Shown: positions 12 to 21,999 of the stretch, one piece after another
Layout: each line of letters starts with the position of its first letter
How positions within the stretch are numbered: the stretch's first letter is position 1
Virus record (IMG/VR): IMGVR_UViG_3300029258_003331
From: a virus
Taxonomy: Duplodnaviria; Heunggongvirae; Uroviricota; Caudoviricetes
Length of the DNA: 64,000 bases
Direction: 5' to 3' (one strand)
Made by a program: the position numbers and the translations under genes
Notes under the pieces: model-generated
What the model saw: the letters and a program-made list of their open reading frames with translations, nothing else
What the model was told of the DNA's origin: nothing
The model's database searches: none

Positions 12-356
12 ATGGACAAAAAACGAGTGGCTGCTGAACTGGTGCGGCTGGCGAAAGGGGTAAGCAGTGACCGTAAACGCACGGCGGTGGATGTTGAAAA
101 ACACATCAAGACTATTCAGCGCATGACGGATTCGAATAGGTTTTCGGAGTCATTGTTGTACCTATTCGCGAAGGTGCTGCGGGACAGGGAGGCTGCCAGT
201 GCGATGCGTGCGGTGATTGCCCTGCGAGACTATTTTGGGAGCATGCCGGCTGGACTTCGCAAGGTGGTTTACGACAAATTCTACAAAAAGGGCATCGAAC
301 AGGTAAGGCGCGAGTTTGATGAAGAAACCGCCGAGCGTATTTACATGGCATTCTGA
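12..356 (+). CDS. Small protein of the N-terminal 'RVAAELVRLAK' helix family (114 aa)
   Basis: ATG with upstream GAGGGATTGAG RBS. N-terminus is MDKKRVAAELVRLAKGV. C-terminal region unrelated to other family members. Confidence 0.7.
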   Translation: MDKKRVAAELVRLAKGVSSDRKRTAVDVEKHIKTIQRMTDSNRFSESLLYLFAKVLRDREAASAMRAVIALRDYFGSMPAGLRKVVYDKFYKKGIEQVRREFDEETAERIYMAF

Positions 357-371
357 AGCAGGAGTTGAGGG

Positions 372-803
372 ATGGATGAGAGACGAGTGGCTGCTGAACT
401 GGTGCGACTGGCAAAGGAACTGACGGCAAAAGTTGACGTTTCCGGAACACCCCGAGCGAGGAAGGCTGCCTATCGTGGTCTCTGGGTCACACTTGATGGC
501 GGTGAGGTGACTGGCAGTGTGTATTTTCGCCAGGAGGTGAGTTTCATCCGCGAAGACGCCAAGGGCATTGCGACCATAATGAAGCGTTTTGGGGAACGGG
601 TCGAGAAAGTGGCTTCAAAGTCGCCTGCGGAAATGAGACCGGATGGTGACGTGCGCATGGGTTCAAAGGCGAGTGAACCGAGTTCTGTGTTGTTGACGGT
701 GCCGTATGTGGTCAAATTCGGCGGTGCAAAAGGCGCGGGAGCCGTCGTTGAGTACTTGGAAAAGAACCCCAACGTAGGGAAGTTCACGAATTGGCTGGAC
801 TGA
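372..803 (+). CDS. Small protein of the N-terminal 'RVAAELVRLAK' helix family (143 aa)
   Basis: RBS GGAGTTGAGGG then ATG. N-terminus MDERRVAAELVRLAKELTAK, nearly identical to the N-terminus of the preceding gene. Confidence 0.75.
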   Translation: MDERRVAAELVRLAKELTAKVDVSGTPRARKAAYRGLWVTLDGGEVTGSVYFRQEVSFIREDAKGIATIMKRFGERVEKVASKSPAEMRPDGDVRMGSKASEPSSVLLTVPYVVKFGGAKGAGAVVEYLEKNPNVGKFTNWLD

Positions 804-831
804 TGCGCGGGTCTCATCGCCTGTGAGAAGT

Positions 832-859
832 TTGTGGTCATTCGCCCGGGGCTATAATT
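832..859 (+). promoter_or_regulatory. Sigma70-like promoter TTGTGG-16nt-TATAAT
   Basis: -35-like and -10 hexamers with 16-nt spacing, 37 nt upstream of the 896 start. Confidence 0.45.
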
Positions 860-895
860 GGTTGAGGACATTGAGATTACATAGGGGAGCAAGAG

Positions 896-1378
896 ATGGA
901 CAGGAAAGAATTGGCGAAGAAACTTGTGCGGCTTGCGGGCAGCATCATGGGACCTGGTATTCCTGATGGCAGTGGTCCTTGCGGTGGTACGGATGAGTGC
1001 CCGATGACAGATGATGCTCCGATGGCACGAGGGAGACGTTACCTTCGCAGAGGTCCCCAGGATGGCACAGGACCGATGGGTGGTACGGATGAGTGTCCGA
1101 TGGCGAAAGAGGAGTTGGCGACGGAACTTGTGCGACTGGCGAAGGCGCTGGTTGCAGGTGCTCCGGCTCTTTCCAACAAGGAGAAGGCTGTCGCCAAGAA
1201 GATGCAGGCGAAGGGATACAACTACATCGTGCAAATCACAACGGTTGATGGTGACTTTGGCGAGCCGCTTTACTTCAAACATGCCAGTGAAGTGGGGCCG
1301 TTTTTGCGCAATTTCCCGGACTATCAGAAAGCGAAGATCAAGTGGACGGCGACTCTGAGCGATTTTGATTTGGACTGA
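896..1378 (+). CDS. Protein with two copies of the family helix motif separated by a duplicated GGTDECPM segment (160 aa)
   Basis: Upstream TTGTGG-16nt-TATAAT promoter-like element (about 832-859) and GGGGAGCAAGAG RBS. Motifs are MDRKELAKKLVRLAGSI and MAKEELATELVRLAKALV. There is a 94-bp tandem duplication at DNA level. Confidence 0.75.
   Translation: MDRKELAKKLVRLAGSIMGPGIPDGSGPCGGTDECPMTDDAPMARGRRYLRRGPQDGTGPMGGTDECPMAKEELATELVRLAKALVAGAPALSNKEKAVAKKMQAKGYNYIVQITTVDGDFGEPLYFKHASEVGPFLRNFPDYQKAKIKWTATLSDFDLD
985..1102 (+). repeat. 94-bp-period tandem duplication inside the 896..1378 CDS
   Basis: GGTGGTACGGATGAGTG(C/T)CCGATG occurs at 985-1008 and 1079-1102. Encodes GGTDECPM twice. Confidence 0.7.
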
Positions 1379-1384
1379 TGAACC

Positions 1385-2050
1385 GTGGACGACTGCCTCC
1401 TCGCCCAAGAGTTGCTAAAGGTAGCCCGGATTCTCACATCCGGACCACCTCGCTCATTTAGCAAGACATTTGAAGGTCCAAACGGTAATGAGGCTGTTGC
1501 ATACGAGTGGCGCTGGAAATGGGACGAGGTATACAGCAAGCGCGAGGACGGCCTTGTCTCCGCGAAGGTGAGCGACTGGGACAACGCCGAGAAGTGCAAG
1601 AGCTGTGGCCGGAAGATTGTCCACGTCTACTGGGTGAAGGACAAGGAAACCGGGAAGGTCGAGCCCTACGGAGCCGACCACCTGCATGTCGCCCTGGGAT
1701 ACCGGCGCGAGTTGAGCAAGTCCCAGGTCGAGGGCATCCAGCGCAAGGTGACGAACCTCGAAGCCCAAGCCAAGGAAGAGAAGAGACAGCGCGAGGAGTA
1801 CGAACAGAAAGTCAAACTCAGGGCCTTCAAGATAAAGGGCGACCCGAAGCAGGCGATGCAGCAAGCCAACATCGCCTTCAGCAAGTACGGCAGCCATCCG
1901 CTCATGGGCAAGCGGCCTGTGGTTTGGCTGTGGAACAAGTCGAAGGACTTGCTAATGCGCGGGGACGACTTCGCGGTGAAGAGGTTCTTGCGGATGATGA
2001 GCGGCTGGCAGGCAATAGAGCCGGGCAAGGTAAGGGAGGTGGTGACATGA
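1385..2050 (+). CDS. Family-related protein (221 aa), GTG start, N-terminus LAQELLKVARIL, K/E-rich C-terminal region
   Basis: Long ORF with diverse composition. Motif variant at the N-terminus. Stop overlaps the next start as ATGA. Confidence 0.7.
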   Translation: MDDCLLAQELLKVARILTSGPPRSFSKTFEGPNGNEAVAYEWRWKWDEVYSKREDGLVSAKVSDWDNAEKCKSCGRKIVHVYWVKDKETGKVEPYGADHLHVALGYRRELSKSQVEGIQRKVTNLEAQAKEEKRQREEYEQKVKLRAFKIKGDPKQAMQQANIAFSKYGSHPLMGKRPVVWLWNKSKDLLMRGDDFAVKRFLRMMSGWQAIEPGKVREVVT

Positions 2051-2397
2051 ACCAGGAACAAGTGGCTGACAGGGTGGCAAATCATGTCGTGGCTCTAATG
2101 GGACCAGAGACCGTGAATGAGGCGCTTGACCCAATATGGAACAAGTTGCACGATGCCGAGACAGCCCTGCGGCAGGTGGGGGACAGGTACGACATTGCTG
2201 CCTCTTATTCCGGCGGACCAGGGGAGAGGGATGCCAAGGAGATGGTGGTGCTCATTGGGAAACTCCTCAAACACATCAATGCACTGACTACCAAGGCGTT
2301 TGACCGCGTCGCAGGGGCAGAGCGCAAATTCATCAAGCAATTCGGCACACCGGATGATTACGCTGACAAACAGCGCAGAGAGATTTTTCCGAGATAG
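2047..2397 (+). CDS. Hypothetical protein (116 aa) with degenerate helix motif EQVADRVANHVVAL
   Basis: ATG at 2047 follows AGGGAGGTGG RBS and overlaps the upstream stop (ATGA). The long upstream extension of this frame (1507-2046) is R/G/Q-rich and looks like a shadow ORF. Confidence 0.6.
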   Translation: MNQEQVADRVANHVVALMGPETVNEALDPIWNKLHDAETALRQVGDRYDIAASYSGGPGERDAKEMVVLIGKLLKHINALTTKAFDRVAGAERKFIKQFGTPDDYADKQRREIFPR

Positions 2398-2407
2398 GGG
2401 AGGCACA

Positions 2408-2836
2408 ATGGACGACAGACGAGTAGCACGCAATCTCGTGAGGATGGCCAAGGAACTCGCTGGTTCCTGGACGGGCAAACAAGTTTTTATCAACAGCAAG
2501 GGCAAACTCGTTGATATTGTGTTCCGCTGGGTTGTCGAGTTGGAAGAGGGGGACGAGTGGAAAGATGTAGTGCGCAGTCTCCAGACAAAAGCCAGCGACT
2601 CAGAGGGCGATTTCAAGAGATTGAATGACGCTGTGAAATCCTTCCAGCACATGGCTCGCTTCGAATATTTTCGTCCCCTGCGATTCTGGGCAAAAAGCGA
2701 GTGGTTTGTCGCGTCAACGAGAATTCGGTGGAGCATCGACGATGACCAAGACCTGGAGTGGAGCAACGAGATTATGGCTCGGCTACAGAAGGCATCCAGC
2801 AATCACGGGTTCAAAGTCGTGAAAGGCTCTTGGTAG
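2408..2836 (+). CDS. Small protein of the N-terminal helix family (142 aa)
   Basis: Internal ATG at 2408 preceded by GGGGAGG RBS. N-terminus MDDRRVARNLVRMAKELAGS. Confidence 0.75.
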   Translation: MDDRRVARNLVRMAKELAGSWTGKQVFINSKGKLVDIVFRWVVELEEGDEWKDVVRSLQTKASDSEGDFKRLNDAVKSFQHMARFEYFRPLRFWAKSEWFVASTRIRWSIDDDQDLEWSNEIMARLQKASSNHGFKVVKGSW

Positions 2837-2839
2837 GAC

Positions 2840-3289
2840 ATGACCTCGCGCGACGAAGTGCTCAGGAAGATGATTTCAGGGGTGCCTCCAGAAGGTATTG
2901 AGGCTGAATACATCCCGGATGACTATGGAGCCGAACCACTGCTCGACCAGAATCCCGAGCCGGCGTTCAGGTATGTCAACCTGGGACCAAATGCGCTGAG
3001 GGAACTACGAGCCCAGGCTGACCAGGGAGAGGAAGGTATCGACCCGGTGGCATTGGTTTTAGCCGAGAGGTTCATGGCAAAACGCTGTAATTCGGCGCAC
3101 CAGGCAGGGGAGCCGGAGCGAGGAGAGCCCAGGGAAGCCCAGAGAGTTGATAGTCTCCGCGATTGTGTGAGCGATGAGCGTGATGAGTGGATAATAGTAG
3201 ACCCGTCGAAATTGGCCGAGATTGCACCGCGTGAATTGGGGGACCTGATTGATTTTGACATGCTGCTGGGAGATGAGTGTGAGATTTGA
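2840..3289 (+). CDS. Acidic hypothetical protein (149 aa)
   Basis: ORF starts 4 nt after the upstream stop. Composition is acidic. Confidence 0.6.
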   Translation: MTSRDEVLRKMISGVPPEGIEAEYIPDDYGAEPLLDQNPEPAFRYVNLGPNALRELRAQADQGEEGIDPVALVLAERFMAKRCNSAHQAGEPERGEPREAQRVDSLRDCVSDERDEWIIVDPSKLAEIAPRELGDLIDFDMLLGDECEI

Positions 3290-8048: not shown

Positions 8049-8525
8049 TTGATGAACAACATTCAGATCGCCAAGGAACTGGTTGCCATCGCCAGAGATA
8101 TTTCTCCTGAAGTGGACGAGTGGCAAACGAAGTTTCCCTATGAACTGATTGACAAACTCGACACTGAATACAACTCCCTGAATCGGTGGTATCGTGACCT
8201 GCGCCAGTCCAATCCTGACGCCGCGAGTTTGTTAAATGACGCCCTCAAGAGCATGGTGACTTTGCTGGCTCGGTTGAAAAGGAGTGCTGAGAGTTTGTAC
8301 TTGACGGCTTCTCATCGTCCTGTTGCTGGCGCGGACATGGGCTCAGTAATCGCAATGGCTATTTCACGGCTAGAAAGGCTGCAGGACGAGTTTACTGCGG
8401 TCAGGGATAAGATGAAGCGGAGCCGGGAGCCTGTTATCCGGAACACTGTCAAAAAACTCAATGTTGCCTTGGATGCATTCAAGGATGTGATGAGTAAGAT
8501 GGTGAGCGTTGAGGCATCGGTTTAA
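8049..8525 (+). CDS. Helix-family small protein (158 aa)
   Basis: AGGAGCACTTG then ATG. N-terminus MMNNIQIAKELVAIARDIS. Confidence 0.8.
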   Translation: MMNNIQIAKELVAIARDISPEVDEWQTKFPYELIDKLDTEYNSLNRWYRDLRQSNPDAASLLNDALKSMVTLLARLKRSAESLYLTASHRPVAGADMGSVIAMAISRLERLQDEFTAVRDKMKRSREPVIRNTVKKLNVALDAFKDVMSKMVSVEASV

Positions 8526-8548: not shown

Positions 8549-8965
8549 ATGAGTAAGAAGGCGCGTGTTTCAGATAAGATGGTAGCCGAGAAATTGGTGC
8601 GCCTAGCCAAGGAACTCGTTGGCGGGGCAAAAGAAGCGGCTGGGATGTTTTTCGTGTATGACGTTATCGGTGACTCAATTATCCTGCAAGCACTCAGGGA
8701 GGTAAGAACTGGTGACATTCTCAAGGACGTCAACGCCGACGCCAATGATGCAGTCAAGCAGATGGCTAAGAAACTCTCCGCTGTCGAGGCTGGGTTGAAG
8801 GGAAATGGTTCGGCGTACAGGATAACCGAGAAGCCGACGGATGCTGTCTTGTTGAATGTTGGTGGTCGCATGTACGTCTCCGGGGGCGCTTCGTTTTCTG
8901 CTGACGATGTTGCTGCTGCGGAGAAAGTCGTTAAGAGACAGAAATTCCGTCTGCAGGCTTTTTGA
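8549..8965 (+). CDS. Helix-family small protein (138 aa)
   Basis: GACGGAGGAAAAGG then ATG. N-terminus MSKKARVSDKMVAEKLVRLAKELVGG. Confidence 0.8.
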   Translation: MSKKARVSDKMVAEKLVRLAKELVGGAKEAAGMFFVYDVIGDSIILQALREVRTGDILKDVNADANDAVKQMAKKLSAVEAGLKGNGSAYRITEKPTDAVLLNVGGRMYVSGGASFSADDVAAAEKVVKRQKFRLQAF

Positions 8966-8978
8966 TGGAGATTGTGGC

Positions 8979-9269
8979 ATGAATCAAAACGAAATTGCCG
9001 AGCGCGTAGCATATAGCGAAAAGCAGTGGGAACAGGCAACCCGGCTTATCGAGAGCGGTGACTCGTTGGTGAAGATTCTGCAGCAGGACTTAGATCGGGT
9101 GCAGAAAGCCGTGGACGCTGCTCAGAGGCAACTTAAGGGAGCGCAGCGGGCAGGAGCAGGCAGGACGATTTCTCCGGATATTATTGACGCCCACATCATT
9201 CCGGCTCTGCGCACAATGAATTCGACGGTGCATGGTCTCTTTGAGCAGGCAAAGGCAACCGTGAAATGA
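8979..9269 (+). CDS. Hypothetical protein (96 aa) with weak motif NEIAERVAYS
   Basis: ATG 8979 is 9 nt after GGAG. Stop overlaps the next gene start (ATGA). Confidence 0.5.
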   Translation: MNQNEIAERVAYSEKQWEQATRLIESGDSLVKILQQDLDRVQKAVDAAQRQLKGAQRAGAGRTISPDIIDAHIIPALRTMNSTVHGLFEQAKATVK

Positions 9270-10777
9270 GTATCGCTGACGTCACATATACCAACATTAC
9301 TTTCCAAAAAGCCAAAGCAACGGCGGCGCAGATGGGGGCGACGTTGTTTTGGTATGAAGGTGTGCCTTGGATCATGCGAAAGGGGCAGTGGGAAATAGAC
9401 AGGCAGAAGCCCAGACTGAAAGCCCGGAAACGCACGGCAAGGATGTCGGTGAAAAAAGACGGTGAGACAACAGACAGGCGTATTGCTGTCGAACTAATCA
9501 GAGTTGCCGACTTGCTGTTGGGTTCCAGGGCAAAGTTCTTGATGGATGAAGCAGGGGGAGGAGAACCGCAGGGACGGCTATATCGGTCACTGAGGTCTTT
9601 GACAAAGAGCAACAATGGTCTTTGGGAGTCCCCGAAGCAACGTGACTTCATCAAACGTATGATTCAGAGAGGTGGCAAGAGCCCGACGAGTGGCTATTTT
9701 TCTGCTAAGATGCTTGCCAAGGCACCTTCCCAGCCTTACACGGGCATTGTTGGTACGGAATACTGGCACGGGAGAAACTGGGGCAAAAAGCAGCGATACA
9801 TGCTCTACGTGTATTTTGTCGATGATTACGGTATTGTGCGAGAGTTAAAAGGCAAGATGAAGTACAACGAGAAGGAGGGGCTAGGTCCTGAACTTGTCGG
9901 TTTCCAAGTTACGTTTGACCGCCCAGCAAATCTCGGGCTCGTTCAAGAAGAGAAAGAAGATCCGTGGTTTGATGAGCACCGGAAAGAAATCGACTTTGCC
10001 AAAGAATGGTTGGGCGACAACGATTTCTGGAAGAAATGGCTGGGGGAATTAGATGACGGTGTGCGTATTCCAGACAAGATGTGGGAACGCATGTTAGAAG
10101 ATGCCGAGAGGGAGAGTACAAAGGACGCACTCGAAGGATTTCCACGGGCTCCTACTAAGACTGAACTAGAACTGAAGATACAGTTCGTGAAGGTTTACGA
10201 AGGACAGTACGGAACCTCGGTCGGTTTAGGAGGAGTGGATAAGCGTTACCCTGAACGTTGTTTTATCATGGTAAGCGCTGATTGGTTGGACAGGAACTTG
10301 CCTCAAGACATGGCAGATGATTTTGATGCGTGGCTCAATGGATACGAGGATGTTTCTCCCAGACCAGTGCTTAAGGGCAAGACCATGACCATCGCGGGGG
10401 AATTCGAATCAGACGGCGAGGTCATCAAAAAAGTGAAGCGCGCCCGACTGAAGATGGTGAAAATCGCAAAAAGGGCTAGCATGAAATTGCGGATGACGAA
10501 TGGACGTGCCGAAAAGCGAGTAACCGAGCAACTCCAGGGAATGAAACTCAAGGCTCGGAACAAGGGAGATGTTAACAGCGCGGTTATCTCTGGGGGCTAC
10601 TATGCCGGAAAGCACGAGCAAAGAGCGTATGTCTATCCTGGTAACTCCTACGGAACGGCGGTGTGGAGAGTGACGTTCAAGGAAAACGAGGCATTGAATC
10701 CGATAAACAACTCGGGTGCTTTTTTGTTCACGGTCGATCCTGATTTGACTGTGACGCGCTGGGACACGAGAAAATGA
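9266..10777 (+). CDS. Hypothetical protein (503 aa) carrying the family helix (DRRIAVELIRVADLLLG) at residues about 70-86
   Basis: ATGA-coupled start. Long ORF with diverse composition. An in-frame ATG (9443) lies 10 codons before the motif. Confidence 0.85.
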   Translation: MSIADVTYTNITFQKAKATAAQMGATLFWYEGVPWIMRKGQWEIDRQKPRLKARKRTARMSVKKDGETTDRRIAVELIRVADLLLGSRAKFLMDEAGGGEPQGRLYRSLRSLTKSNNGLWESPKQRDFIKRMIQRGGKSPTSGYFSAKMLAKAPSQPYTGIVGTEYWHGRNWGKKQRYMLYVYFVDDYGIVRELKGKMKYNEKEGLGPELVGFQVTFDRPANLGLVQEEKEDPWFDEHRKEIDFAKEWLGDNDFWKKWLGELDDGVRIPDKMWERMLEDAERESTKDALEGFPRAPTKTELELKIQFVKVYEGQYGTSVGLGGVDKRYPERCFIMVSADWLDRNLPQDMADDFDAWLNGYEDVSPRPVLKGKTMTIAGEFESDGEVIKKVKRARLKMVKIAKRASMKLRMTNGRAEKRVTEQLQGMKLKARNKGDVNSAVISGGYYAGKHEQRAYVYPGNSYGTAVWRVTFKENEALNPINNSGAFLFTVDPDLTVTRWDTRK

Positions 10778-11118
10778 AGCGACGAGCCAAACCTGCGATA
10801 CCCTACACTCTCAAGCGGGCAGGCTTTCGCGTGGTTGAGAAACCCGACGCGATGAGTGGCGCGATAGAACGATTCTTAGTGTCGAGCGATGACATTTTCG
10901 GCGTTGTGGATGTTTTGACTTCTGCCGGCTGGAAAGTGTCGAAGCGCAGTCAAAAAGAGATCATGCTGAAGGATCAACAAACGGCATTAAGAGTGCGTTT
11001 GACGAACGACCGGCGCTATCCCATTAGTCTGGCGAGATACCATACTGTTCCTACCGGTTTGGCGCTTAACGTGGCTTCTGAACTGGTGAAGATAGCCAGG
11101 ATTGTTGTGACCGGATAA
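10774..11118 (+). CDS. Small protein (114 aa) ending in the family helix (…VASELVKIARIVVTG)
   Basis: ATGA overlap with the upstream gene. Motif is at the extreme C-terminus. Confidence 0.7.
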   Translation: MKRRAKPAIPYTLKRAGFRVVEKPDAMSGAIERFLVSSDDIFGVVDVLTSAGWKVSKRSQKEIMLKDQQTALRVRLTNDRRYPISLARYHTVPTGLALNVASELVKIARIVVTG

Positions 11119-11128
11119 GGACTGGAAA

Positions 11129-12478
11129 ATGACAGACGAGGTCCCTGATTTTGTTTTGGCAGCATGCAAGCGCGTGAAGGGGAAATATGGTCCCGTTCAC
11201 GCGAGCTGTATGACGATTTGCCTTGACCGGTTGCCGCTGAATTGGTGGGCTGACGTGATTTTAACGTCGAAATCACTACGACGTGCCTGGTTTGGCATCG
11301 TAAAGTCTGCTGGGCTGTGGTACTGGTTCACACACTACTACACTCCGGATGGTAAACACCGAGTACAGAAGGAGATTAAGGGTATCCAGGAGCGCTTTGA
11401 GCAGGCTATGAAAACGTTCAAAAATGCCCTCGTCGGGGAGCTGGCGCGAGAGGCATACGATGGCTTGCTAATGGTCATGGAGAAAAATGGTGAAAAGGAG
11501 ATAAGCAGCAGAATGCACCATGCGCGCGCCCTCTTGATGGATGACGAAATGGGTAGCATAATCAGGACGATACCCCTCGCTTTAAGGAAGGTGCCGGCGT
11601 ACATCCTCAGAAAACTGAAGGAAAAGATTACGAAGGTCATGACGGAGATGGTAACTTCTTCGGCGACGCAAATGGCTGTAACCAAGGAACCACCATTAAA
11701 GGGAATCCAGCGCAAGAAAAAAATCAAAGAGCAACGGAAATACAACCAGAAACACAAGCAGCAAATCCAGAGAGAAATGGAAAAGCAGCGGAAAAGAACG
11801 TGCCACGGAAAACCGAAGGGATGTAGCCGGCAGGAACGGGTCTGGAAACATCCGAGAGAAGGAGCAGAGATGAGACAGGTCGCGAGAGAATTGGTGCGGC
11901 TGGCAAAGAGGATTACCTACGCACCCACCAAAAACATGACGCCAGAGGAAGCCAAGAAAAAGGTCCAAGACGCTGTGAAGGAAATGCAGGCTCTTCACGA
12001 CAAGGCAACGAAAGCCGAAGGTGACAAGCTCGACCTCAAACTCTTGCGCAACCGGGTACAACAGGCGCTCAGGGAAGACGTTGCCAGTCTGAAGGCTCTT
12101 GCTGGACATCTTGATCTTGACGACGTTGACATCAAGAAGGTCGAAACTGCGTTAAAAAAGGACCTCGCAGCACTGAAGAAGAAAAGCGCCTCAGAAGAAG
12201 GCAACAGGCAAGCATCTGAAAGTTTGTTCTATGCCCTGATTGACCCGAAGGACATTCACAAATTGAAAAGCGAAGTAGACGAGCAGACGTATGAACTGGC
12301 ACTCAAGGTTGCGGTTCAACTTGCTAAGGATTTCACGCCTGACCGCAATCAGAGGGAAGCCATAAACCGACTAAAGATGAGCGTGAGCGGTCATGTAAGG
12401 GGAGCGGACCTTCACAGAAACAACATCTTCAAGGCAGCACACGCTTTGGGAATAAAATTGCCGAGTATGATGTTCTAG
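11129..12478 (+). CDS. K/E-rich coiled-coil-like protein (449 aa) with internal family helix (MRQVARELVRLAKRIT) at residue 248
   Basis: Long ORF. The internal in-frame ATG 11870 is preceded by GAGAAGGAGCAGAG RBS, so the C-terminal 203 aa may also be made as a separate helix-family protein. Confidence 0.8.
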   Translation: MTDEVPDFVLAACKRVKGKYGPVHASCMTICLDRLPLNWWADVILTSKSLRRAWFGIVKSAGLWYWFTHYYTPDGKHRVQKEIKGIQERFEQAMKTFKNALVGELAREAYDGLLMVMEKNGEKEISSRMHHARALLMDDEMGSIIRTIPLALRKVPAYILRKLKEKITKVMTEMVTSSATQMAVTKEPPLKGIQRKKKIKEQRKYNQKHKQQIQREMEKQRKRTCHGKPKGCSRQERVWKHPREGAEMRQVARELVRLAKRITYAPTKNMTPEEAKKKVQDAVKEMQALHDKATKAEGDKLDLKLLRNRVQQALREDVASLKALAGHLDLDDVDIKKVETALKKDLAALKKKSASEEGNRQASESLFYALIDPKDIHKLKSEVDEQTYELALKVAVQLAKDFTPDRNQREAINRLKMSVSGHVRGADLHRNNIFKAAHALGIKLPSMMF

Positions 12479-12693: not shown

Positions 12694-13083
12694 ATGCCCA
12701 GGACGACGAAGAAGGAATGGGAAGCCGCATTGAAAAAGGACGAGGCTGACCTGCGTTGGTACGAAGATGCCCTGAAGAAGATTCAGAGGGGCGAATCAGT
12801 GGAGAACCTGAGCGAGGACGGAGCCAAGAGCGTAATCCGAGGGCTGCAACAAGTCATCAAAAACAAGAAGGGCTTGATGAGGAACCTGTCTGCCTCTGCG
12901 GTAGCATCCGAGTTGCTGCGGTTGGCGAAGGAAATCGTAGCGGCGGACGAACCGAGCAACCTGAACAAGAGAGAACGCCAGAGGGTCAAGGAACTCTGGG
13001 ACAAAGAACCTGACCTGACCTCCGCAGAACGCAGGGAACTGAAGCAATTCGAAAAGAGAATGCGCGGTCAGATGACGTTCTGA
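12694..13083 (+). CDS. Charged protein (129 aa) with internal family helix (AVASELLRLAKEIVAADE)
   Basis: GGAGGAG RBS then ATG 12694. The table ORF begins at a TTG at 12649. Confidence 0.7.
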   Translation: MPRTTKKEWEAALKKDEADLRWYEDALKKIQRGESVENLSEDGAKSVIRGLQQVIKNKKGLMRNLSASAVASELLRLAKEIVAADEPSNLNKRERQRVKELWDKEPDLTSAERRELKQFEKRMRGQMTF

Positions 13084-13732: not shown

Positions 13733-13945
13733 CTACTCTGTTTCTGTTTCTGCGTGGAGCCCAGAGAGCATCGCGGCGACCGGAATCATACATTCGTTGG
13801 TTTCGCCGCACCTGTTTGCGCCTCGGATGATTTTACTCGCCTCGTTCCGTTCGTAGATACCGGCTCCGCTGAGTTCGGTTGAGTATCCCCGCGAGTTGGG
13901 AGCCCACCAGGCATTGTGCTCGATGCTCCAAATGAGATATTTCAT
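13733..13945 (-). CDS. Hypothetical protein (70 aa)
   Basis: ATGA overlap with the upstream L7/L12-like gene, suggesting translational coupling. Confidence 0.5.
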   Translation of the reverse strand: MKYLIWSIEHNAWWAPNSRGYSTELSGAGIYERNEASKIIRGANRCGETNECMIPVAAMLSGLHAETETE

Positions 13946-14289
13946 GTGATTTGTTCTTTCAGTTCAAGCGCTTTTGCAAAAGCCACGGTGAGATGCGGCA
14001 GCACGGAAGGCATTTCTCGCTGAGTTGCCAATTGGATGGCTGCCTTGATGTGTTGGATAATGTCGTCACTTGGGTCGTAGGTGGAGAAGGTGAAGCCGGC
14101 GTTGTGGAGTGTTGTTGTCGCTCGGGTGGCTTTTTCCTTGTTGAGGGAGATTTGCCGTGTTTCACCGGCTGCGACCGAGTCAATGATGAGTTTTGAATCC
14201 TTGAGCCCCAGATTAGTGACTTCGCGGAGCGCTTTGATGGCTGGTATGCGGTTCTCGTTTGTGGGGACAGCCGTGATGACGAGTTCCAT
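13942..14289 (-). CDS. Ribosomal protein L7/L12 C-terminal-domain-like protein (115 aa)
   Basis: AAAGGAAAGAACC then ATG. IPAIKALREVTNLGLKDSKLIIDSVAAGE aligns with the bL12 CTD consensus ([23 protein letters not shown]). Lacks the bL12 N-terminal dimerisation and hinge region. Confidence 0.7.
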   Translation of the reverse strand: MELVITAVPTNENRIPAIKALREVTNLGLKDSKLIIDSVAAGETRQISLNKEKATRATTTLHNAGFTFSTYDPSDDIIQHIKAAIQLATQREMPSVLPHLTVAFAKALELKEQIT

Positions 14290-14320
14290 GGTTCTTTCCT
14301 TTCTAAAAGGCTTCAAATTG

Positions 14321-14671
14321 TCAGGATACGCCTTTGGGCGGTTCCAGGAAGAACGGTGTTTCTGCGGTGGACGCCTCAATTGCGGATTTCAGACCGGCAA
14401 GCGTTCCCGTCTCTATTCCGCAGTGTTCCCGGGGACAGCCGTCTGTGGCGGATTGACAGTGCTCCACAAGTAAGCATTGTTCGCAATTTTGGTTTTCCGG
14501 TTCGTATTCGCCGTAGCATTGTGCAATGGATTGTATGTGCTGCACAAACGCGCGGCTTTTGCGGCAACTTTGCTGGAATCCGCAGTCCTCGCAGGAAAAA
14601 CGGCTGTCGTAGTTACCGTGGCATTTGGGTACGGTTTCCGGGGCTGTTTTCGTGTCAGGCATCTTGGTCAT
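14321..14671 (-). CDS. Cys-rich putative metal-binding protein (116 aa, at least 12 Cys)
   Basis: CEDCGF…C, CEQC…C…C…C clusters. Start may be internal. Confidence 0.6.
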   Translation of the reverse strand: MTKMPDTKTAPETVPKCHGNYDSRFSCEDCGFQQSCRKSRAFVQHIQSIAQCYGEYEPENQNCEQCLLVEHCQSATDGCPREHCGIETGTLAGLKSAIEASTAETPFFLEPPKGVS

Positions 14672-14900
14672 CCTCCAAAACCAGGAAAATGGCTGGCGGT
14701 GGCTCGGGCGCAGTGTCGAATTTTAGGAACTGAACCTCGATGTCGTTTGCGTTGAGAGTTGTGTCGGTGGCTTCTCCGGTTTTAGGGTCCGTGCCAAGAA
14801 TCAGAGCGCTCTCCAGAATAGGGCGAGGCGAAAACCGGGCAAGAAAGCCCTGCGTTTCGGAGTGGAGAAAAGCCTCTTGTGTAATGTTATCACGTTCCAT
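14655..14900 (-). CDS. Hypothetical small acidic protein (81 aa)
   Basis: In-operon ORF with short overlaps on both sides. Confidence 0.45.
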   Translation of the reverse strand: MERDNITQEAFLHSETQGFLARFSPRPILESALILGTDPKTGEATDTTLNANDIEVQFLKFDTAPEPPPAIFLVLEDDQDA

Positions 14901-15366
14901 AGAAGACGCATACCAGGTGTTTTGAGTTATCGGTTAGTGCCATGGCTTCCATCAGTCCCAGCAACCACCGAAAGCGGCGATAATCGCTGTTCTGCACGTC
15001 AGTGCGCACCGCCTCTAAGACATCCTTGAAAGGAACCAAGACAAGTGGATCGCCATAGTTGTCTTCAGAAAACTCGGTACACCTGTCACTGTGATAAAAA
15101 TACACAAACTCATTTTGATTTTCTTCGGTGACCTTAAGGTACTTATCATGCAACAAGTCGAGGTTGCTATAGTCGATTTTGCTAAGGTCAAGATGCACAG
15201 CAGGCATCAAGTATCGTTGCATACGCCCCGTCTTGATTGGGTTTCCGGCTTTATCCTTTTTATATGGATACCCAGACCCATCTTCATATGGGTTAGTCAA
15301 ATCTTTTGCCAGTTCTGGTACAGGATCTCCAAGGAAACCTATAACAATGTGCGTTTCATATCCCAT
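14890..15366 (-). CDS. Hypothetical protein (158 aa)
   Basis: ATG 15366 after AAAGGGTAAAACC. Composition looks like a globular protein. Confidence 0.7.
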   Translation of the reverse strand: MGYETHIVIGFLGDPVPELAKDLTNPYEDGSGYPYKKDKAGNPIKTGRMQRYLMPAVHLDLSKIDYSNLDLLHDKYLKVTEENQNEFVYFYHSDRCTEFSEDNYGDPLVLVPFKDVLEAVRTDVQNSDYRRFRWLLGLMEAMALTDNSKHLVCVFYGT

Positions 15367-15379
15367 GGTTTTACCCTTT

Positions 15380-15547
15380 CTAAGCATTGACCAGTTTCTT
15401 GGCTACACCACTCCCAAACTTCATTTCCTTTCTGTCCAGCGGTTGGATGAGCCTGCAGCCTGTGAGGGAGTAGATGTTTTCGAGCGTACCGTCGCAATGC
15501 ACATCCCGGATTTGTTTGTTGCGAACGTCAATCAGCACGGCTTTCAT
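15380..15547 (-). CDS. Small protein (55 aa, MKAVLIDVRNKQIRDVHCDG…)
   Basis: Strong AAGGAGG RBS 7 nt before ATG. GACCGGTTATAAGG promoter-like motif 20 nt upstream. Below the table threshold. Confidence 0.5.
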   Translation of the reverse strand: MKAVLIDVRNKQIRDVHCDGTLENIYSLTGCRLIQPLDRKEMKFGSGVAKKLVNA

Positions 15548-18134: not shown

Positions 18135-18725
18135 TCAATTACATCGCCCTGGCTGGAAACGGCTGGGGCGATAGCTTTGATGGATGATTTCTTGTACCCG
18201 CTCCCAGGGCATCGGCTCATAGTCGTGGCCGTCTATCCCAACATCCAGAGACAGATTGCTCCTGAAATACTTGCTGTGCGAGTGACCGTGCAAATGCCAG
18301 GTTCCGCTTTCCTTGCCAGTCCATTGCCAGTTGTATCGGTGGCTTAGATAGAGTTTGACGCCGTCCAGAATCATCGTGTGCTCTTTCTTGACCCACACAA
18401 ACTCAGTGGCGTTTCTGACTCCCCGTGCGTCGTGGTTTCCCAGGATGAGGCGAATGCGTCCGTTGAGCCGTGCAACCAGGGGCTCAACGGTCACACGCGT
18501 GCCATGGAAAGCAAAGTCCCCCAGGTGATACACGTCGTCCTCTGGGCTTACTATTTGATTCCAGATGCTTATCAGAGCCTCGTCCATTTCGACGGCGCAT
18601 GTGTTTTTGGCTTCTTTGCTGAGCCATTCGTTGTCTTCATCGACGTAGCCGGCAGCCCAAGGACGGTTGCAGTGACGTGCTATGTTTGCATGTCGAAAAT
18701 GGGTATCTGCTGAGAAATATATCAA
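18135..18725 (-). CDS. Calcineurin-like metallophosphoesterase (196 aa)
   Basis: Motifs D-x-H (SADTHFRH), GDFAF, GNHD and HGHSH match the MPP superfamily signature set. Confidence 0.85.
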   Translation of the reverse strand: MIYFSADTHFRHANIARHCNRPWAAGYVDEDNEWLSKEAKNTCAVEMDEALISIWNQIVSPEDDVYHLGDFAFHGTRVTVEPLVARLNGRIRLILGNHDARGVRNATEFVWVKKEHTMILDGVKLYLSHRYNWQWTGKESGTWHLHGHSHSKYFRSNLSLDVGIDGHDYEPMPWERVQEIIHQSYRPSRFQPGRCN

Positions 18726-19180
18726 GTTCCTGCCCCAATGTAGAAGACGTGCCCCTCAGCACATTGGTAGGCGTCAACAACGTCGAGACATGTTTTCCGA
18801 CCCGGCACGTGAACCCGAATCATGTCGCTTGCAATATCAGAACTGGTTTTTGTGAGCGTCGAACAGCCGCAAACAGGACACTGTCTCGGGCGTTTCCGGG
18901 TACCAGGGTCGCGTCCCAGGATGGCGCTAATTTCTTCGTCATTCAGGTCAAAAGCGACGCCGAAAGGGAAAAAATCACACTTCTGAATGCGGTCGATGGC
19001 TTCTTGGATTGATTCTTCCAGCGCAGAACCAGCGAGCGCGTCAAAGGGCAGTTCCACGTATCCTTCGCCGTTTTCAATTGTGTTGCAGATTTCTCGCATG
19101 ATGTGTCTTGGACCTGTCTGGAGGGAATCGCAGTGTACCCAGAGCGCATTTGCCTCCTCGTTTGACAAGATGATGTGCAT
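18722..19180 (-). CDS. Hypothetical protein with CPVCGC motif (152 aa)
   Basis: ORF in the minus operon. Overlaps neighbouring genes by 4 nt. Confidence 0.7.
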   Translation of the reverse strand: MHIILSNEEANALWVHCDSLQTGPRHIMREICNTIENGEGYVELPFDALAGSALEESIQEAIDRIQKCDFFPFGVAFDLNDEEISAILGRDPGTRKRPRQCPVCGCSTLTKTSSDIASDMIRVHVPGRKTCLDVVDAYQCAEGHVFYIGAGT

Positions 19181-19182
19181 GT

Positions 19183-19764
19183 CTAGTTTCCCTCTGCCAG
19201 GTATTTGTCTACCTCGGCTAGTCCTCTGCCATAGTCCGAACTGTGGTAAAACTCGACGATTTCTCGTTTGCGGATGTGTTTCAGTTCTTTGAGTTTCGGG
19301 ACGGTCAGGGTTTCGACCATCACTTTGGTCTCTGTGAAGGCTTTATCGCCCTTCTTGATGAGGTTGGCAGCGTGTGTAGAGTCGGGGCGAAATTTGAGCA
19401 GGTAGTGACCCCGTAGCATCGCGCGGTAGTCTTTCTCGGTAGTCTCCATGACGATGAGGGTGACAAAATCCTGAACAGCCATGAGCCAGTCGATACGGAT
19501 GTTGGCTGGCAGATGGAACAGCGGGGCGGACTGGGTGGGGCGCGGGTAGAACATGAGGTGTTTCTGAATGAAAAGTTGTGCTGCCCAGGCTCGTGAAATG
19601 AGCGGTTTTGGTTGAGGCTTCTTGGCGCTATCCAGAGTGCCGTTTTTGCGCCAGTCGAATTCCAGACCCTTTGAGAGAAGCATATGGCAAAGGGTAGTTG
19701 CCTCGCAGGTCATAATTGTTGGGTACCGGCGCATCCAGTATAGCATCCTGTCGTAATACCTCAT
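19183..19764 (-). CDS. Hypothetical protein (193 aa)
   Basis: ORF in the minus operon. Confidence 0.7.
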   Translation of the reverse strand: MRYYDRMLYWMRRYPTIMTCEATTLCHMLLSKGLEFDWRKNGTLDSAKKPQPKPLISRAWAAQLFIQKHLMFYPRPTQSAPLFHLPANIRIDWLMAVQDFVTLIVMETTEKDYRAMLRGHYLLKFRPDSTHAANLIKKGDKAFTETKVMVETLTVPKLKELKHIRKREIVEFYHSSDYGRGLAEVDKYLAEGN

Positions 19765-20075
19765 TCTGTAGCCTCCGGGTCTGCTAATTCAAAATGGGGG
19801 TGGGGGTTTCCCTCGGGGTCGATTATCTCCAGTTCATGTATCCTGAAGAGCCCCCCGAGCGTCCAGTCACAGCCCATTTCTTCGGTGTGGCGTCCGATGC
19901 ATGAATATCCGATTTGAGTGGCAATTGTCGCATCGTCCAGGTCCGTATACTCGCGGAAATCCTCGGCGGTTTGAGGGGTGCCGCACCTTGGACATTTGAC
20001 CTTCCAAAGCGCTGGTTTTTCTCCGAAGCGTCTTTTGGCTTCGGCAACGAATTTTTGAACGGTGATGGTACGCAT
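19761..20075 (-). CDS. Hypothetical protein with CPRCG zinc-ribbon-like motif (104 aa)
   Basis: AAGGAGCAAAAA then ATG at 20075. TTGGTATAATG on the minus strand about 30 nt upstream. Confidence 0.6.
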   Translation of the reverse strand: MRTITVQKFVAEAKRRFGEKPALWKVKCPRCGTPQTAEDFREYTDLDDATIATQIGYSCIGRHTEEMGCDWTLGGLFRIHELEIIDPEGNPHPHFELADPEATE

Positions 20076-20103
20076 TTTTTGCTCCTTGGGTGATTTTCCC
20101 TGC

Positions 20104-20112
20104 ATTATACCA
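20104..20112 (-). promoter_or_regulatory. Extended -10 promoter TGGTATAATG (minus strand)
   Basis: About 30 nt upstream of the 20075 minus-strand start. Confidence 0.5.
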
Positions 20113-20221
20113 ACAGTGTCTCTTTTTGGTTGGGCGAAAATCAGGAATGTTTGGAATTTTGGTGAAGGAGGGCACCGGGGGCTCCGCGAGGGAAGCCCCC
20201 GGCGTGAGGGAGGGAGACGGC

Positions 20222-20461
20222 TCAGATGGTCAATTGGCGGATGTGAGCAGCCATGCGCGCGAAGGCTGCCGGCGAACTATCTCGCACATGGCTCCAATCA
20301 AAGCACTGCTCGTTCGCGAAGGAGAAGTCGATGGTCCCGAAGCCGTCACCGAGCAAGTAAACCTCGGTGTGCTGTTGCGAGGTGAGTTTGCCAAAGTTCT
20401 CGCCAGTGCAGCACATGTACGAGACCACAAGGTCGCGCTCTTCCTGGGCTTTGGTAGTCAT
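20222..20461 (-). CDS. Hypothetical protein (79 aa)
   Basis: GAAAGGAAAAAGAC then ATG. TTGGCACCGGTTATACAGG motif 28 nt upstream. Confidence 0.55.
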   Translation of the reverse strand: MTTKAQEERDLVVSYMCCTGENFGKLTSQQHTEVYLLGDGFGTIDFSFANEQCFDWSHVRDSSPAAFARMAAHIRQLTI

Positions 20462-20488
20462 GTCTTTTTCCTTTCTATCCTTGGACTA

Positions 20489-20509
20489 CCTGTATAACCG
20501 GTGCCAAAA
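20489..20509 (-). promoter_or_regulatory. Conserved TTTTGGCACCGGTTATACAGG element, copy 3
   Basis: 28 nt upstream of the 20461 minus-strand start. Confidence 0.5.
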
Positions 20510-20534
20510 TCAATACGCGGTCAAAATCTCGGAT

Positions 20535-21560: not shown

Positions 21561-21561
21561 A

Positions 21562-21867: not shown

Positions 21868-21883
21868 TGGTTTTCCTTTCTGC

Positions 21884-21903
21884 CTGTATAACCGGTCTCA
21901 AAT
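21884..21903 (-). promoter_or_regulatory. Conserved TTTGAGACCGGTTATACAGG element, copy 4
   Basis: 17 nt upstream of the 21867 minus-strand start. Confidence 0.5.
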
Positions 21904-21999
21904 CGTAGGTGACGTTAAAATCCCATATTTTCTTGATATTTTCGTGTAGATGAGCGCGTCCCAATATGCCGTTTCCCCTCCTTCGTGGCGCTTGCTGCC

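Follow-up and report, generated by a model that had tools for sequence, protein, structure and literature searches.

A portable amphipathic helix on otherwise unrelated small proteins of uncultivated large phages: a candidate capsid-targeting propeptide

Results

We analysed a 64,000-nt stretch of phage DNA (Caudoviricetes; IMGVR_UViG_3300029258_003331), referred to here as the window, which derives from a genome of 117–133 kb. Five consecutive genes at its 5′ end, starting at 12, 372, 896, 1385 and 2408, have one amphipathic N-terminal helix in common, and the translations of ORFs 12–356, 372–803, 896–1378, 1385–2050 and 2408–2836 begin with the peptides given in the original prediction. This tag is 17–19 residues long with the consensus M-[DN]-x-x-[KR]-[VI]-A-x-E-L-V-[KR]-[LI]-A-[KR]-E-L-x-[AGS]. 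A loose regular expression found 13 copies on the + strand of the window and none on the − strand. With an 18-column HMM, there were 14 strong matches (16–28 bits), all on the + strand, where the maximum for reversed-sequence controls was 7.4 bits. Six more copies lie in the same genome beyond the window, and the genome as a whole has at least 20. The genes concerned are as follows:

12–356, + strand: tagged gene, 114 aa; tag MDKKRVAAELVRLAKGVSS at nt 12–68; HMM 25.0 bits; GGAG-type ribosome-binding site upstream; protein without a family match in Pfam, PHROGs or NCBIfam
372–803, + strand: tagged gene, 143 aa; tag MDERRVAAELVRLAKELTA at nt 372–428; HMM 26.5 bits; exact protein also recorded on a 116.7 kb ENA contig
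896–1378, + strand: doubly tagged gene, 160 aa; tags at nt 896–952 and nt 1100–1159; HMM 21.7 and 22.7 bits
1385–2050, + strand: tagged gene, 221 aa, GTG start; tag VDDCLLAQELLKVARILTSG; HMM 20.9 bits
2047–2397, + strand: untagged gene, 116 aa; N-terminus MNQEQVADRVANHVVAL; no HMM match of 4 bits or more
2408–2836, + strand: tagged gene, 142 aa; tag MDDRRVARNLVRMAKELAGS, with Asn for Glu at site 1 and A-K-E kept at site 2; HMM 27.2 bits
7594–7989, + strand: tagged gene, 131 aa; tag MKEVASALLRMAKTLMAK, without an A-x-E site; HMM 24.5 bits; start coincides with the source-contig gene call
8052–8525, + strand: weakly tagged gene, 157 aa; MNNIQIAKELVAIARDIS; HMM 6.5–7.8 bits, the level of the controls
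8549–8965, + strand: tagged gene, 138 aa; tag at residues 9–26, nt 8573–8626; HMM 27.7 bits; boundaries as in the source-contig gene call
9266–10777, + strand: 503-aa ORF with an internal tag at residues 70–87, nt 9473–9526; HMM 20.0 bits; no good ribosome-binding site ahead of the Met near the tag
10774–11118, + strand: 114-aa gene with a C-terminal tag, NVASELVKIARIVVTG-stop, nt 11062–11115; HMM 22.2 bits
11129–12478, + strand: 449-aa ORF with an internal tag at nt 11870–11923; HMM 25.5 bits; AAGGAG-N5-ATG ahead of the tag
12694–13083, + strand: 129-aa ORF with a tag at nt 12892–12945; HMM 22.3 bits
17733–18116, + strand: tagged gene, 127 aa, from a codon-usage gene call; tag MNKRRVARDLVQLAKNLTAY; HMM 16.4 bits
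22451–22876, + strand: tagged gene, 141 aa; tag MDDRRIAGELIRVAKLLEAV; HMM 23.0 bits
26602–27024, + strand: weak tag-like N-terminus, MERIAREILAVARLLIAQ; HMM 4.8 bits, not above controls

ORF 2047–2397 had been proposed as a weak member of the set; with an HMM score below 4 bits it is not a member, and at most it could be counted in a looser class of N-terminal helices. The signature had also been said to head at least nine further genes. Past position 3289 there are eight strong copies (7594, 8573, 9473, 11062, 11870, 12892, 17739 and 22457) and two to three weak ones (8061, 26602 and 27542); only four to six of them head a gene. The C-terminal copy and the three internal copies (ORFs 9266–10777, 11129–12478 and 12694–13083) do not. 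ORF 11129–12478 is probably either a fusion of two modules or a case of an in-frame internal start; its C-terminal module has homologs in L044, L023, L068 and L047 that are stand-alone proteins with a tag. An internal start is also possible in ORF 12694–13083, given the Met six residues upstream of the tag.

All-against-all BLASTP aligned only the first 15–20 residues of the proteins, so the bodies are unrelated at BLASTP sensitivity and the predicted arrangement of a conserved module on diversified bodies holds. Within the motif, pairwise identity at codon positions 1, 2 and 3 was 53%, 74% and 36%; the third-position value compares with 24–27% in flanking DNA, and the stretches up- and downstream of the motif are at the random level of 27%. 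All four codons are in use for the invariant Ala, and 63% of same-residue codon pairs differ in codon. Selection is therefore acting on the tag peptide rather than on the DNA. More widely, 131 of 157 tagged bodies fall in separate clusters, and the tag is shuffled over unrelated bodies on hundreds of contigs. The genes form a tight tandem series on one strand, as would be expected if the similarity came from ordinary paralogue expansion or from a feature of the nucleic acid itself, for example a recombination site or a shared promoter, translation enhancer or ribosome-binding site. That explanation is already contradicted by the BLASTP and codon-position results, with third positions near random, and by the movement of the tag among unrelated bodies; we consider it extremely unlikely. 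The recent duplication named as a risk in the original prediction is likewise not seen: the bodies have no detectable similarity, the flanks are random and the codons are spread.

The tag is a portable peptide, in which a 16-residue amphipathic helix is followed by a flexible linker and then by any small soluble body. The helix has an Asp/Asn N-cap and a small residue as C-cap: position 16 is small in 89% of copies, often with a second small residue next, and conservation ends at position 17. A Met lies exactly six residues ahead of Ala4 in 161 of 225 copies, and an adjacent Met is present in 202 of 236, against a background of 31%. In the doubly tagged protein of gene 896–1378, AF2 predicted both tags as isolated helices (residues 3–18 and 72–86) separated by a linker with pLDDT <50 (residues 19–68); the duplicated linker contains ‘GPGIPDGSGP..TDECPM’ and a small alpha/beta body follows. 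Homologs of this protein carry the same body with other N-termini or the same head with other bodies. The tagged bodies are hypervariable and soluble, with a median of 108 aa, and none of 178 has a transmembrane segment (9% of untagged ORFs do). They are not basic and show no pI bias. Among the tagged proteins are rubrerythrin-like proteins and CCA-adding enzymes; in the latter the Pfam domain begins only at residue 41. Proteins with two to five tags, separated by Lys/Glu-rich spacers, make up 7.5% of tagged ORFs.

The tag had no match in Pfam, PHROGs or NCBIfam, was not found in GenBank phages or in 185,579 cellular genomes, and a literature search for its peptide strings found no paper, in line with the earlier statement that the signature matches no described family. 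Environmental phage contigs commonly carry it, and it is present on 49% of ORFs in tag-selected arrays.

The head module lies at the other end of the window:

52987–54828, + strand: large terminase (TerL), start of the head module; weak Pfam TerL matches
55484–57499, + strand: portal protein; phrog_16240, E = 8e-21
57496–59856, + strand: 786-aa low-complexity protein following the portal, with a PEAK-repeat stretch
63690–64000, + strand: start of a 117-aa ‘W-x-Y-A-R-W’ protein cut by the window end (L010 10636–10989)

TerL is 47–53% identical to TerL in seven IMG/VR contigs. The C-terminal RKDKDLMQDTGG module of the low-complexity protein is a separate small gene in relatives, with a tag-like helix at its head. 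The prohead protease gene begins ∼50 nt past the window end (L010 11000–11992). The protease of this clade resembles annotated prohead proteases of other jumbo phages and is predicted to have a gp21 fold, with T4 gp21 as best structural match. It and its upstream neighbour are the two commonest untagged families of the tag arrays, the ‘W-x-Y-A-R-W’ protein being the most recurrent. Tagged genes flank the protease in L004, L069/L082, L094 and L096. When loci were instead selected by protease, from contigs of 50–338 kb, all five had tags (17 matches, against 0 in the control), with tag-headed genes one to three genes from the protease. The acidic proteins encoded between protease and scaffold contain tag-like helices, mostly without Glu6, and the scaffold of the window phage has a weak tag copy, equalled by 2 of 1000 shuffles. 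By tblastn, TerL and portal did not recur among 80 tag-selected loci. The adjacency of tag and protease is not statistically compelling, because the first loci were chosen by tag and the chance expectation is high: with ∼15% of genes tagged, a tagged neighbour within three genes would occur by chance at ∼60% of loci. In the cultured relative Tunturi_5 the protease is present with no tags within 20 kb on either side.

The protease SPN3US gp245 cuts after A-X-E with Val preferred at P4, and two of its substrates have N-terminal propeptides of 20–24 residues (PMC10052503). The tag carries this V-A-x-E logo. In copies unconstrained by the search pattern, position 3 was V/I in 79%, Ala4 was present in 99% and Glu6 in 92%. 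Of the A-x-E sites that the original prediction placed within the motif, [VI]-A-x-E fits the published logo. In the window genome, Glu6 at this first site is absent from 6 of 20 copies (∼30%) and 3 of 20 have no A-x-E at all.

Discussion

A group of uncultivated large phages therefore carries the same helix on dozens of otherwise unrelated small proteins. The tag is most likely an address label that loads proteins into the assembling head and has a protease cut site built in; we put the probability that it is a capsid-targeting propeptide of the kind of the T4 capsid-targeting sequence (CTS) at about one half. Through the helix, the tagged protein would dock onto the prohead scaffold or core during assembly, probably by tight helix–helix packing of the invariant Ala4/Ala11 face. 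The partners are likely to be the acidic multi-helix proteins whose genes lie between protease and scaffold, and which have the same kind of helix. The gp21-fold protease would then cut after Glu in [VI]-A-x-E, in some cases with a second cut at A-[KR]-E, leaving the cargo free inside the head, from where it could enter the next host together with the DNA. The literature places gp245 in the gp21 lineage; T4 gp21 itself cleaves behind L/I-X-E, 10 residues from the start of IPIII are enough for prohead targeting, and a variety of IP-like proteins bearing CTS-like sequences is present in T4 relatives (PMC9026906). In SPN3US, the head contains over 50 different proteins, and many of them are ejected (PMC10052503). 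If the propeptide reading is true, the large set of fast-evolving bodies would amount to an arsenal of accessory proteins delivered by injection, for example factors for host takeover or anti-defence.

Of the roles suggested originally, virion targeting is the best-supported explanation, through the predicted protease fold, the logo and the gene context, although cytoplasmic docking remains its rival; a polymorphic-effector (toxin) role received no support from any result. The peptide-level selection, the fixed Met spacing, the absence of transmembrane segments, the isolated helices with a low-pLDDT linker, the late start of the CCA-adding domain, the small bodies and their modularity all favour a capsid-targeting propeptide, as do the logo and the tagged genes beside the protease and scaffold genes. 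Against it stand the copies lacking Glu6 or any A-x-E, the general absence of Glu6 from the head-module helices, the non-basic cargo, conservation over the entire helix beyond what a cleavage site needs, the location of most window copies 25–50 kb from the head genes, the result for Tunturi_5 and the scale of usage, which far exceeds that of any known CTS system (a single genome of ∼120 kb has 20 or more tagged genes, and 49% of ORFs in tag-selected arrays are tagged). In addition, [VI]-A-x-E sites flank the protease core in only 21% and 31% of homologs.

Some of these points would suit a virion-independent docking or oligomerisation helix in the cytoplasm, which associates with its own kind in a homotypic antiparallel coiled coil or attaches to a single abundant hub of phage or host origin. 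Accessory proteins would be gathered into a complex, condensate or viral factory, with multi-tag proteins as multivalent scaffolds. Hydrophobic positions 3, 4, 7, 8, 10, 11, 14 and 15 are palindromic about 9, and the logo suggests self-complementarity, with Ala opposite Leu and Glu6 opposite Lys12. The spacer-separated multi-copy proteins, the cytoplasmic type of the CCA-adding enzyme, the lack of pI bias and the small-gene region in which most copies lie also fit. Such docking leaves unexplained the fixed distance to the initiator Met, the near-perfect V-A-x-E logo and the clustering of tagged and multi-tag genes at protease and scaffold genes; twenty proteins on one host hub would interfere mutually, and multi-copy proteins are few. 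We regard it as possible but doubtful. A membrane-targeting helix, which would bring soluble proteins of the phage to the cell membrane at its inner face, is unlikely. Its hydrophobic moment (0.41–0.48) and net charge (0 to +2) resemble those of the MinD membrane-targeting sequence, and no tagged protein has a transmembrane segment of its own, but mean hydrophobicity is low (0.0–0.2), Glu6 and Glu13 are conserved, and an apolar face of invariant Ala and aliphatics without aromatics suits helix–helix packing over lipid insertion; the logo and head-module context would again go unexplained. Still less probable is a secretion or processing leader, of double-glycine type (C39 peptidase–ABC exporter) or RiPP-like and recognised by one modifying enzyme, on hypervariable ‘cores’. 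The small residues at position 16 and often next to it would agree with this, as would arrays of a conserved leader with a hypervariable remainder like those of prochlorosin-type precursors. Bodies of 60–500 aa with predicted folds are, however, far oversized for RiPP cores, Gly-Gly has no fixed position, internal and C-terminal tags occur, and no C39 peptidase, ABC exporter or RiPP enzyme was present among the scanned window and neighbouring proteins.

The T4 CTS (IPI–III and Alt) likewise consists of a few residues at the very N-terminus of small proteins that are otherwise unrelated. It ends in a cleavage site, after Glu, for a prohead protease of gp21 fold (for the tag, cleavage is proposed from sequence), and its targeting and processing determinants overlap within ∼10 residues. 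The tag has no sequence similarity to MKTYQEFIAE and differs in forming a full amphipathic helix of 17–19 residues with invariant Ala at i and i+7, in its [VI]-A-x-E rather than L/I-x-E site, and in its internal, C-terminal and multi-copy occurrence. It is also used far more widely, on at least 20 genes per genome compared with ∼5 in T4, and T4 internal proteins are basic whereas the tagged cargo is not. The propeptides of head and ejection proteins in giant phages (substrates of phiKZ gp175 and SPN3US gp245) share the A-X-E logo and Val at P4, but most have a length of 111–254 residues and they do not constitute one portable motif; a tag sequence common to them has not been described, and no phiKZ-type or SPN3US-type gene was identified in this analysis.

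Encapsulation peptides of microcompartments and cargo-loading peptides of encapsulins are short, occur at either terminus and are joined by a flexible linker to diverse cargo, which they dock on the inner shell surface. The former are amphipathic helices, and the encapsulin shell has the HK97 capsid fold. Rubrerythrin-like proteins are among the tagged proteins here. The encapsulation and cargo-loading peptides have no sequence similarity to the tag and stay on their cargo without proteolytic removal. Genes for a microcompartment or encapsulin shell were not seen, and the shell for the tag would be the phage capsid. Prochlorosin-type precursors and the N-terminal host-targeting motifs RxLR and PEXEL of eukaryotic pathogens, finally, likewise have a short conserved N-terminal signal on a large, quickly diversifying gene repertoire, read by a single machinery, and PEXEL doubles as a protease site. 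Their biology and sequences are unrelated to those of the tag, and the analogy is one of logic only.

A conserved N-terminal helix in the window

The ORFs at 12, 372, 896, 1385 and 2408 open with the peptides first noted, a shared amphipathic helix of 17–19 residues with an internal V-A-x-E (the tag; the remainder of a tagged protein is its body). ORF 2047, originally listed as a weak member, does not belong. A looser second class of N-terminal helix, M-[ND]-x-E-R-[IL]-[AD]-x-[RKM]-[VIM]-[AT], occurs at window positions 2047, 8979, 22873 and 59853 and in the head modules of several of the metagenome contig loci compared (L002–L008, L096 and L110). The genes that it heads include the conserved 90-aa head-module protein, and it resembles the C-terminal ‘RLDRVANAL’ helix of the scaffold.

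A loose pattern found 13 copies of the tag on the + strand of the window and none on the − strand. The profile built from these copies recovered 14 window copies at 16–28 bits, with reversed sequence reaching at most 7.4 bits. The same genome carries four more copies upstream of the window and two downstream; of the genes on its contig, roughly 117 kb long, about 20 are tagged. The tag had been described as heading at least nine more genes; further copies do lie past 3289, but one is C-terminal and three are internal to long ORFs. Gene 896–1378 holds two copies.

Gene with a C-terminal tag
10774–11118, +, gene carrying the tag at its C-terminus

The internal copy at 11870 is preceded by a strong ribosome-binding site and the module that it starts is a stand-alone tagged protein elsewhere. 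The internal copies are thus most readily explained as neighbouring modules that have fused.

Selection on the peptide and anatomy of the tag

Within the motif, pairwise identity was 53%, 74% and 36% at codon positions 1, 2 and 3, compared with 27% in the flanking DNA. The invariant alanine uses all four codons about equally, and 63% of codon pairs encoding identical residues differ. This pattern shows selection at the peptide level, and so excludes both recent duplication and a DNA-level repeat such as a promoter, ribosome-binding site or recombination site. An ordinary paralogue family was likewise rejected, since BLASTP matches were confined to the tag and the bodies are unrelated. The tag is conserved at the extreme N-terminus of diversified bodies, much as the original prediction had described it.

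Anchored on 225 copies, the consensus is M-[DN]-[RNK]-x-[KR]-[VI]3-A4-x-E6-L7-V8-[KR]9-[LI]10-A11-[KR]12-E13-L14-[VT]15-[AGS]16. Conservation ends at position 17, past which the information falls to zero. The methionine lies exactly six residues ahead of Ala4 in 161 of the 225 copies. The Asp/Asn after the methionine and the small residue at position 16 would be typical helix caps, and the alanines at i and i+7 on the apolar face suggest tight helix–helix packing, not lipid binding. The apolar pattern appears palindromic about position 9, which would place Ala opposite Leu and Glu6 opposite Lys12; antiparallel self-pairing of the tag may therefore be possible. In the AF2 model of gene 896–1378, the two tags are separate helices (residues 3–18 and 72–86), with a linker of pLDDT below 50 and then a small alpha/beta body. 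Tag, linker element and body recombine freely among homologs.

Distribution of the tag

The tag does not match a described family, as had been supposed: no profile in Pfam, PHROGs or NCBIfam gave a significant match over the motif, the best being TIGR04354 (amphi-Trp), whose 13 bits fall short of the cut-off of 31. No paper on the peptide was found in the searched literature. A search of 1.84 billion proteins with the profile of window copies returned 67 cluster representatives at E ≤ 0.001 (best E 8e-11). The copy was N-terminal in 50 of the 66 representatives having one of at least 10 bits, and all those looked up were unnamed metagenome proteins. The motif alignment gave no matches in a word-index protein search, for which the motif is too short.

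At the DNA level, one degenerate pattern matched at least 119 JGI metagenome stretches, against approximately two expected by chance. The first 80 loci (274 kb) contained 236 profile matches, with none in the control; a methionine stands at the start in 202 of these copies against a background of 31%. Fifty-four loci hold 2–15 copies each, always on one strand. Across 120 loci, 226 of 463 array-strand ORFs were tagged, 92% of them by a single copy; this 49% is an upper bound, since the loci were chosen by the tag. In IMG/VR, the exact R-only pattern had no match, and the K/R pattern had a single, lone and internal match that was judged to be chance.

No tags were found overall in GenBank phages, and the cultured relative Tunturi_5 has the protease with zero tags in the surrounding 40 kb. 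In 596 Gbp of species-representative cellular genomes there were only approximately 10 chance matches, which give no clue to the host as they are isolated, internal and without arrays.

Tagged bodies are small, soluble and diverse

Among 166 complete tagged ORFs the median length is 119 aa, and their 157 bodies fell into 131 clusters. Compared with untagged ORFs, the bodies are shorter and more strongly charged, and none of 178 has a transmembrane segment (9% of untagged ORFs). They show no pI bias, so the charge bias expected of DNA-associated internal proteins is not seen. A Pfam and PHROG census of 150 tagged proteins was almost empty, and neither these proteins nor the window proteins matched an inner-body or ejection protein in PHROG or Pfam. 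Only one tagged enzyme is recognisable, a CCA-adding tRNA nucleotidyltransferase; it carries the tag in three phages and in two of them lies inside the head module. An apparently tagged DAHP/KDO8P synthase proved to be a bacterial KdsA with a native helix that resembles the tag by chance. Taken together, these data firmly show a portable helix tag, anchored at the N-terminus and previously undescribed, that is under selection as a peptide and sits on a very large and varied range of small soluble phage proteins.

Two elements recur after the tag. A Gly/Pro-rich element, ‘GPG[IV]PDGTGP..T.ECP’, lies between tag and body, is often duplicated and is then followed by an Arg-rich stretch; it occurs at 950–1100 (gene 896–1378) and in the proteins P0002, P0016, P0024, P0043, P0058, P0072, P0075 and P0076. 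This element resembles the DGTGP motif of DUF5320, but Pfam gave no match to it. The other, ‘EFPTQDAYDKYMKEHPDADKSKH’, comes immediately after the tag, often in several copies per protein (P0008, P0013, P0037, P0053, L016 68–1234, L082 5864–7603 and L148 9189–9938), and proteins of this type adjoin the protease in L082/L069 and L148. Its matches to Phage_blade (PF24647) were below threshold and no paper on it was found in the searched literature. Small tagged rubrerythrin/ferritin-like proteins are present in two different phages, and a ferritin-domain protein lies in a third head module (L001 8771–9178, upstream of the window; L147 7327–7644; L148 5070–7373).

The window genome and its head module

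The window has no DNA-level match to GenBank phages. Its exact proteins are present on ENA, JGI and Logan metagenome contigs of 64–133 kb. Terminases of IMG/VR relatives are approximately 50% identical, and no close relatives of two large window proteins were found in IMG/VR. Homologs of the protease occur on contigs as long as 338 kb; the clade therefore includes jumbo phages. Almost all window genes are on the + strand; two − strand blocks, 13733–15547 and 18135–22332, break this layout and contain no tags. Long antisense open frames (e.g. 312 aa, 470–1408, − strand) are composition artefacts, which longest-ORF gene calling wrongly picks and codon-usage scoring drops. There are no tRNA genes in the window.

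Head-module genes in the right-hand part of the window and beyond its end (L010, same genome)
52987–54828, +, large terminase
55484–57499, +, portal
57496–59856, +, post-portal low-complexity protein, 786 aa
L010 11000–11992, head-maturation protease, directly beyond the window end
L010 12733–13431, scaffold-like protein, beyond the window end
L010 15371–16231, major capsid protein, beyond the window end

At its N-terminus the terminase has a match to Pfam MJ0330_N. A long (K)PEA(K)PE repeat occupies roughly residues 390–455 of the post-portal protein and accounts for an AT-skew spike at 58–60 kb; the protein's conserved C-terminal ‘RGLQ..RKDKDLMQDTGG’ module is a small gene of its own in L002 (17476), L003 (19086), L004 (14739) and L008 (20742). 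A CobT-like VWA protein, a CobS/MoxR-type AAA+ ATPase with a CbbQ C-terminal domain and a DUF2201 VWA-metallopeptidase are encoded at 33390–35252, 36934–38169 and 46266–47579; the last is conserved beside the head module in all seven of seven IMG/VR relatives. Further cargo genes encode an SPFH/Band-7 protein, a HhH-GPD glycosylase and the anaerobic ribonucleotide reductase NrdD (28067–29125, 29472–30407; L010 18845 onward; L144 17877–20493), followed in L144 by the radical-SAM activase of NrdD. The anaerobic reductase suggests that the hosts are anaerobic.

A predicted gp21-fold protease and the A-x-E site

The protease of the clade matches a PHROG head-maturation protease and resembles jumbo-phage proteins that are annotated as prohead core protease. 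Neither Foldseek nor sequence searches picked up this relationship; structural modelling predicts that the genome encodes a prohead protease of the gp21 fold. Characterised phage proteases assigned to the gp21 lineage cut after Glu, with T4 gp21 cutting at L/I-X-E (PMC9026906). For the phiKZ and SPN3US enzymes the site is S/A/G-X-E or A-X-E, with Val preferred at P4 by that of SPN3US (PMC10052503, PMC9026906). The proposal that the tag contains A-x-E sites of the phiKZ type holds up at the level of sequence, as A-X-E with Val at P4 would correspond to [VI]3-A4-x-E6. In unforced copies (residues not imposed by the search pattern) and window-genome copies, V/I occupies position 3 in 79–85%, Ala4 is present in 99–100% and Glu6 in 70–92%. 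[ASG]-x-E at positions 4–6 is found in 91% of unforced and 70% of window-genome copies, and at least one A-x-E in 94% and 85%, respectively.

No full tag helix was found within the protease (best 3.7 bits). [VI]-A-x-E flanks the protease core approximately 9-fold more often than in shuffles, yet in only 21–31% of homologs. In several relatives the protease gene is interrupted in frame by approximately 1.25 kb (L082 2321–4588, L069 5225–7492, L004 19566–21449; P0113), and one homolog has Pfam intein and Hint domains (PF05203, PF14890). LAGLIDADG domains occur in a 1051-aa terminase (L146) and beside the capsid gene (L145), and portals of 1027–1572 aa in L003, L006 and L008 may hold inteins.

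In L004, L069/L082, L094 and L096 the protease has tagged genes as its immediate neighbours. Five loci picked by the protease alone contained 17 tags (control 0), with tag-headed genes one to three genes from it; as approximately 15% of genes are tagged, this neighbourhood is not significant by itself. Acidic proteins between protease and scaffold have two to five tag-like helices (L145 11060–11656, L147 11724–12500), usually without Glu6. The scaffold proper is marked by a conserved C-terminal helix-turn-helix; that of the window phage has a weak tag-like helix, reached by 2 of 1000 shuffles and lacking conservation in the L082 and L110 orthologs.

A protein of approximately 120 aa, with the conserved N-terminus ‘NWEY[AS][RQ]WVY.[IV][GA]R’ and no family match, is encoded immediately upstream of the protease gene of the window genome (63690–64000, on to L010 10989). 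This is the untagged family that recurs most within tag arrays, sometimes in tandem, and it could be a partner of the tag.

Other loci with the NWEY-type protein
L013, L047, L051, L061, L092, L102, L124, L126, L130–L132

Function of the tag

The leading explanation is that the tag is a capsid-targeting propeptide of the kind used by T4 internal proteins, released by the gp21-fold protease; we give this reading a probability of about 0.5. The main rival is a helix for docking or self-association in the cytoplasm. The palindromic, Ala-faced pattern is consistent with it and the likely protease site in the tag favours the propeptide; we consider this rival rather doubtful. Should the tag not be a loading signal, one helix on approximately 15% of a phage's genes would still point to a hub or assembly, with a partner worth finding.

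Other explanations are unlikely. The helix is amphipathic, as a membrane-targeting peptide might be, and the bodies lack transmembrane segments of their own, but its alanine face points away from the bilayer. For a secretion leader of the double-glycine type, a small residue does occupy position 16 in 89% of copies, yet there is no fixed Gly-Gly and no C39 or ABC exporter in the scanned proteins. A paralogue family or DNA artefact is unlikely given the unrelated bodies and the codon pattern. A microcompartment or encapsulin peptide was rejected, as no BMC-H/P or encapsulin Pfam family was present in the scanned window proteins or neighbourhoods, where the only shell protein found was the phage major capsid protein.

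Extending the propeptide reading, we tentatively suggest, at odds somewhat short of even, that the tag is the general cargo-loading signal of a clade of large uncultivated phages, putting dozens of fast-evolving small proteins into each capsid. The Ala-faced helix would pair homotypically with multi-tag core proteins, the gp21-fold protease would then release the cargo, and the cargo packed in the capsid would be injected with the DNA. If so, the tag would reveal the injected proteome of a large environmental phage group directly from sequence: hundreds of hypervariable small proteins that would act in the first seconds of infection, and hence prime candidates for anti-defence and host takeover. 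It would also offer a compact 19-residue, protease-releasable tag for putting foreign proteins into capsids. Either way, the profile makes a mass of ‘hypothetical proteins’ a recognisable class.

Comparison with known systems

The capsid-targeting sequence of T4 internal proteins is MKTYQEFIAE. Like it, the tag is a short peptide at the extreme N-terminus of unrelated proteins; the tag consensus shares only Met1 and the cut-site Glu with it. The tag is thus no sequence relative of the T4 signal, and by its logic would be a new, greatly expanded form of that kind of signal. In T4 IPIII, the first 10 residues target the prohead core and carry the gp21 site, and foreign proteins fused to them are packaged; T4-related phages have diverse IP-like proteins with similar sequences (PMC9026906). 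If the tag is a loading signal, the T4 principle would not be peculiar to T4; it would be a general strategy, used on a much larger scale and with a different, well-defined peptide. The likeness to SPN3US and phiKZ propeptides lies in A-X-E with Val at P4, and no homology of cargo was found; the tagged rubrerythrin/ferritin-like proteins recall the ferritin-like cargo of encapsulins. Should the cargo-loading reading hold, the tag would do for phages what effector-translocation signals do for bacterial and eukaryotic pathogens.
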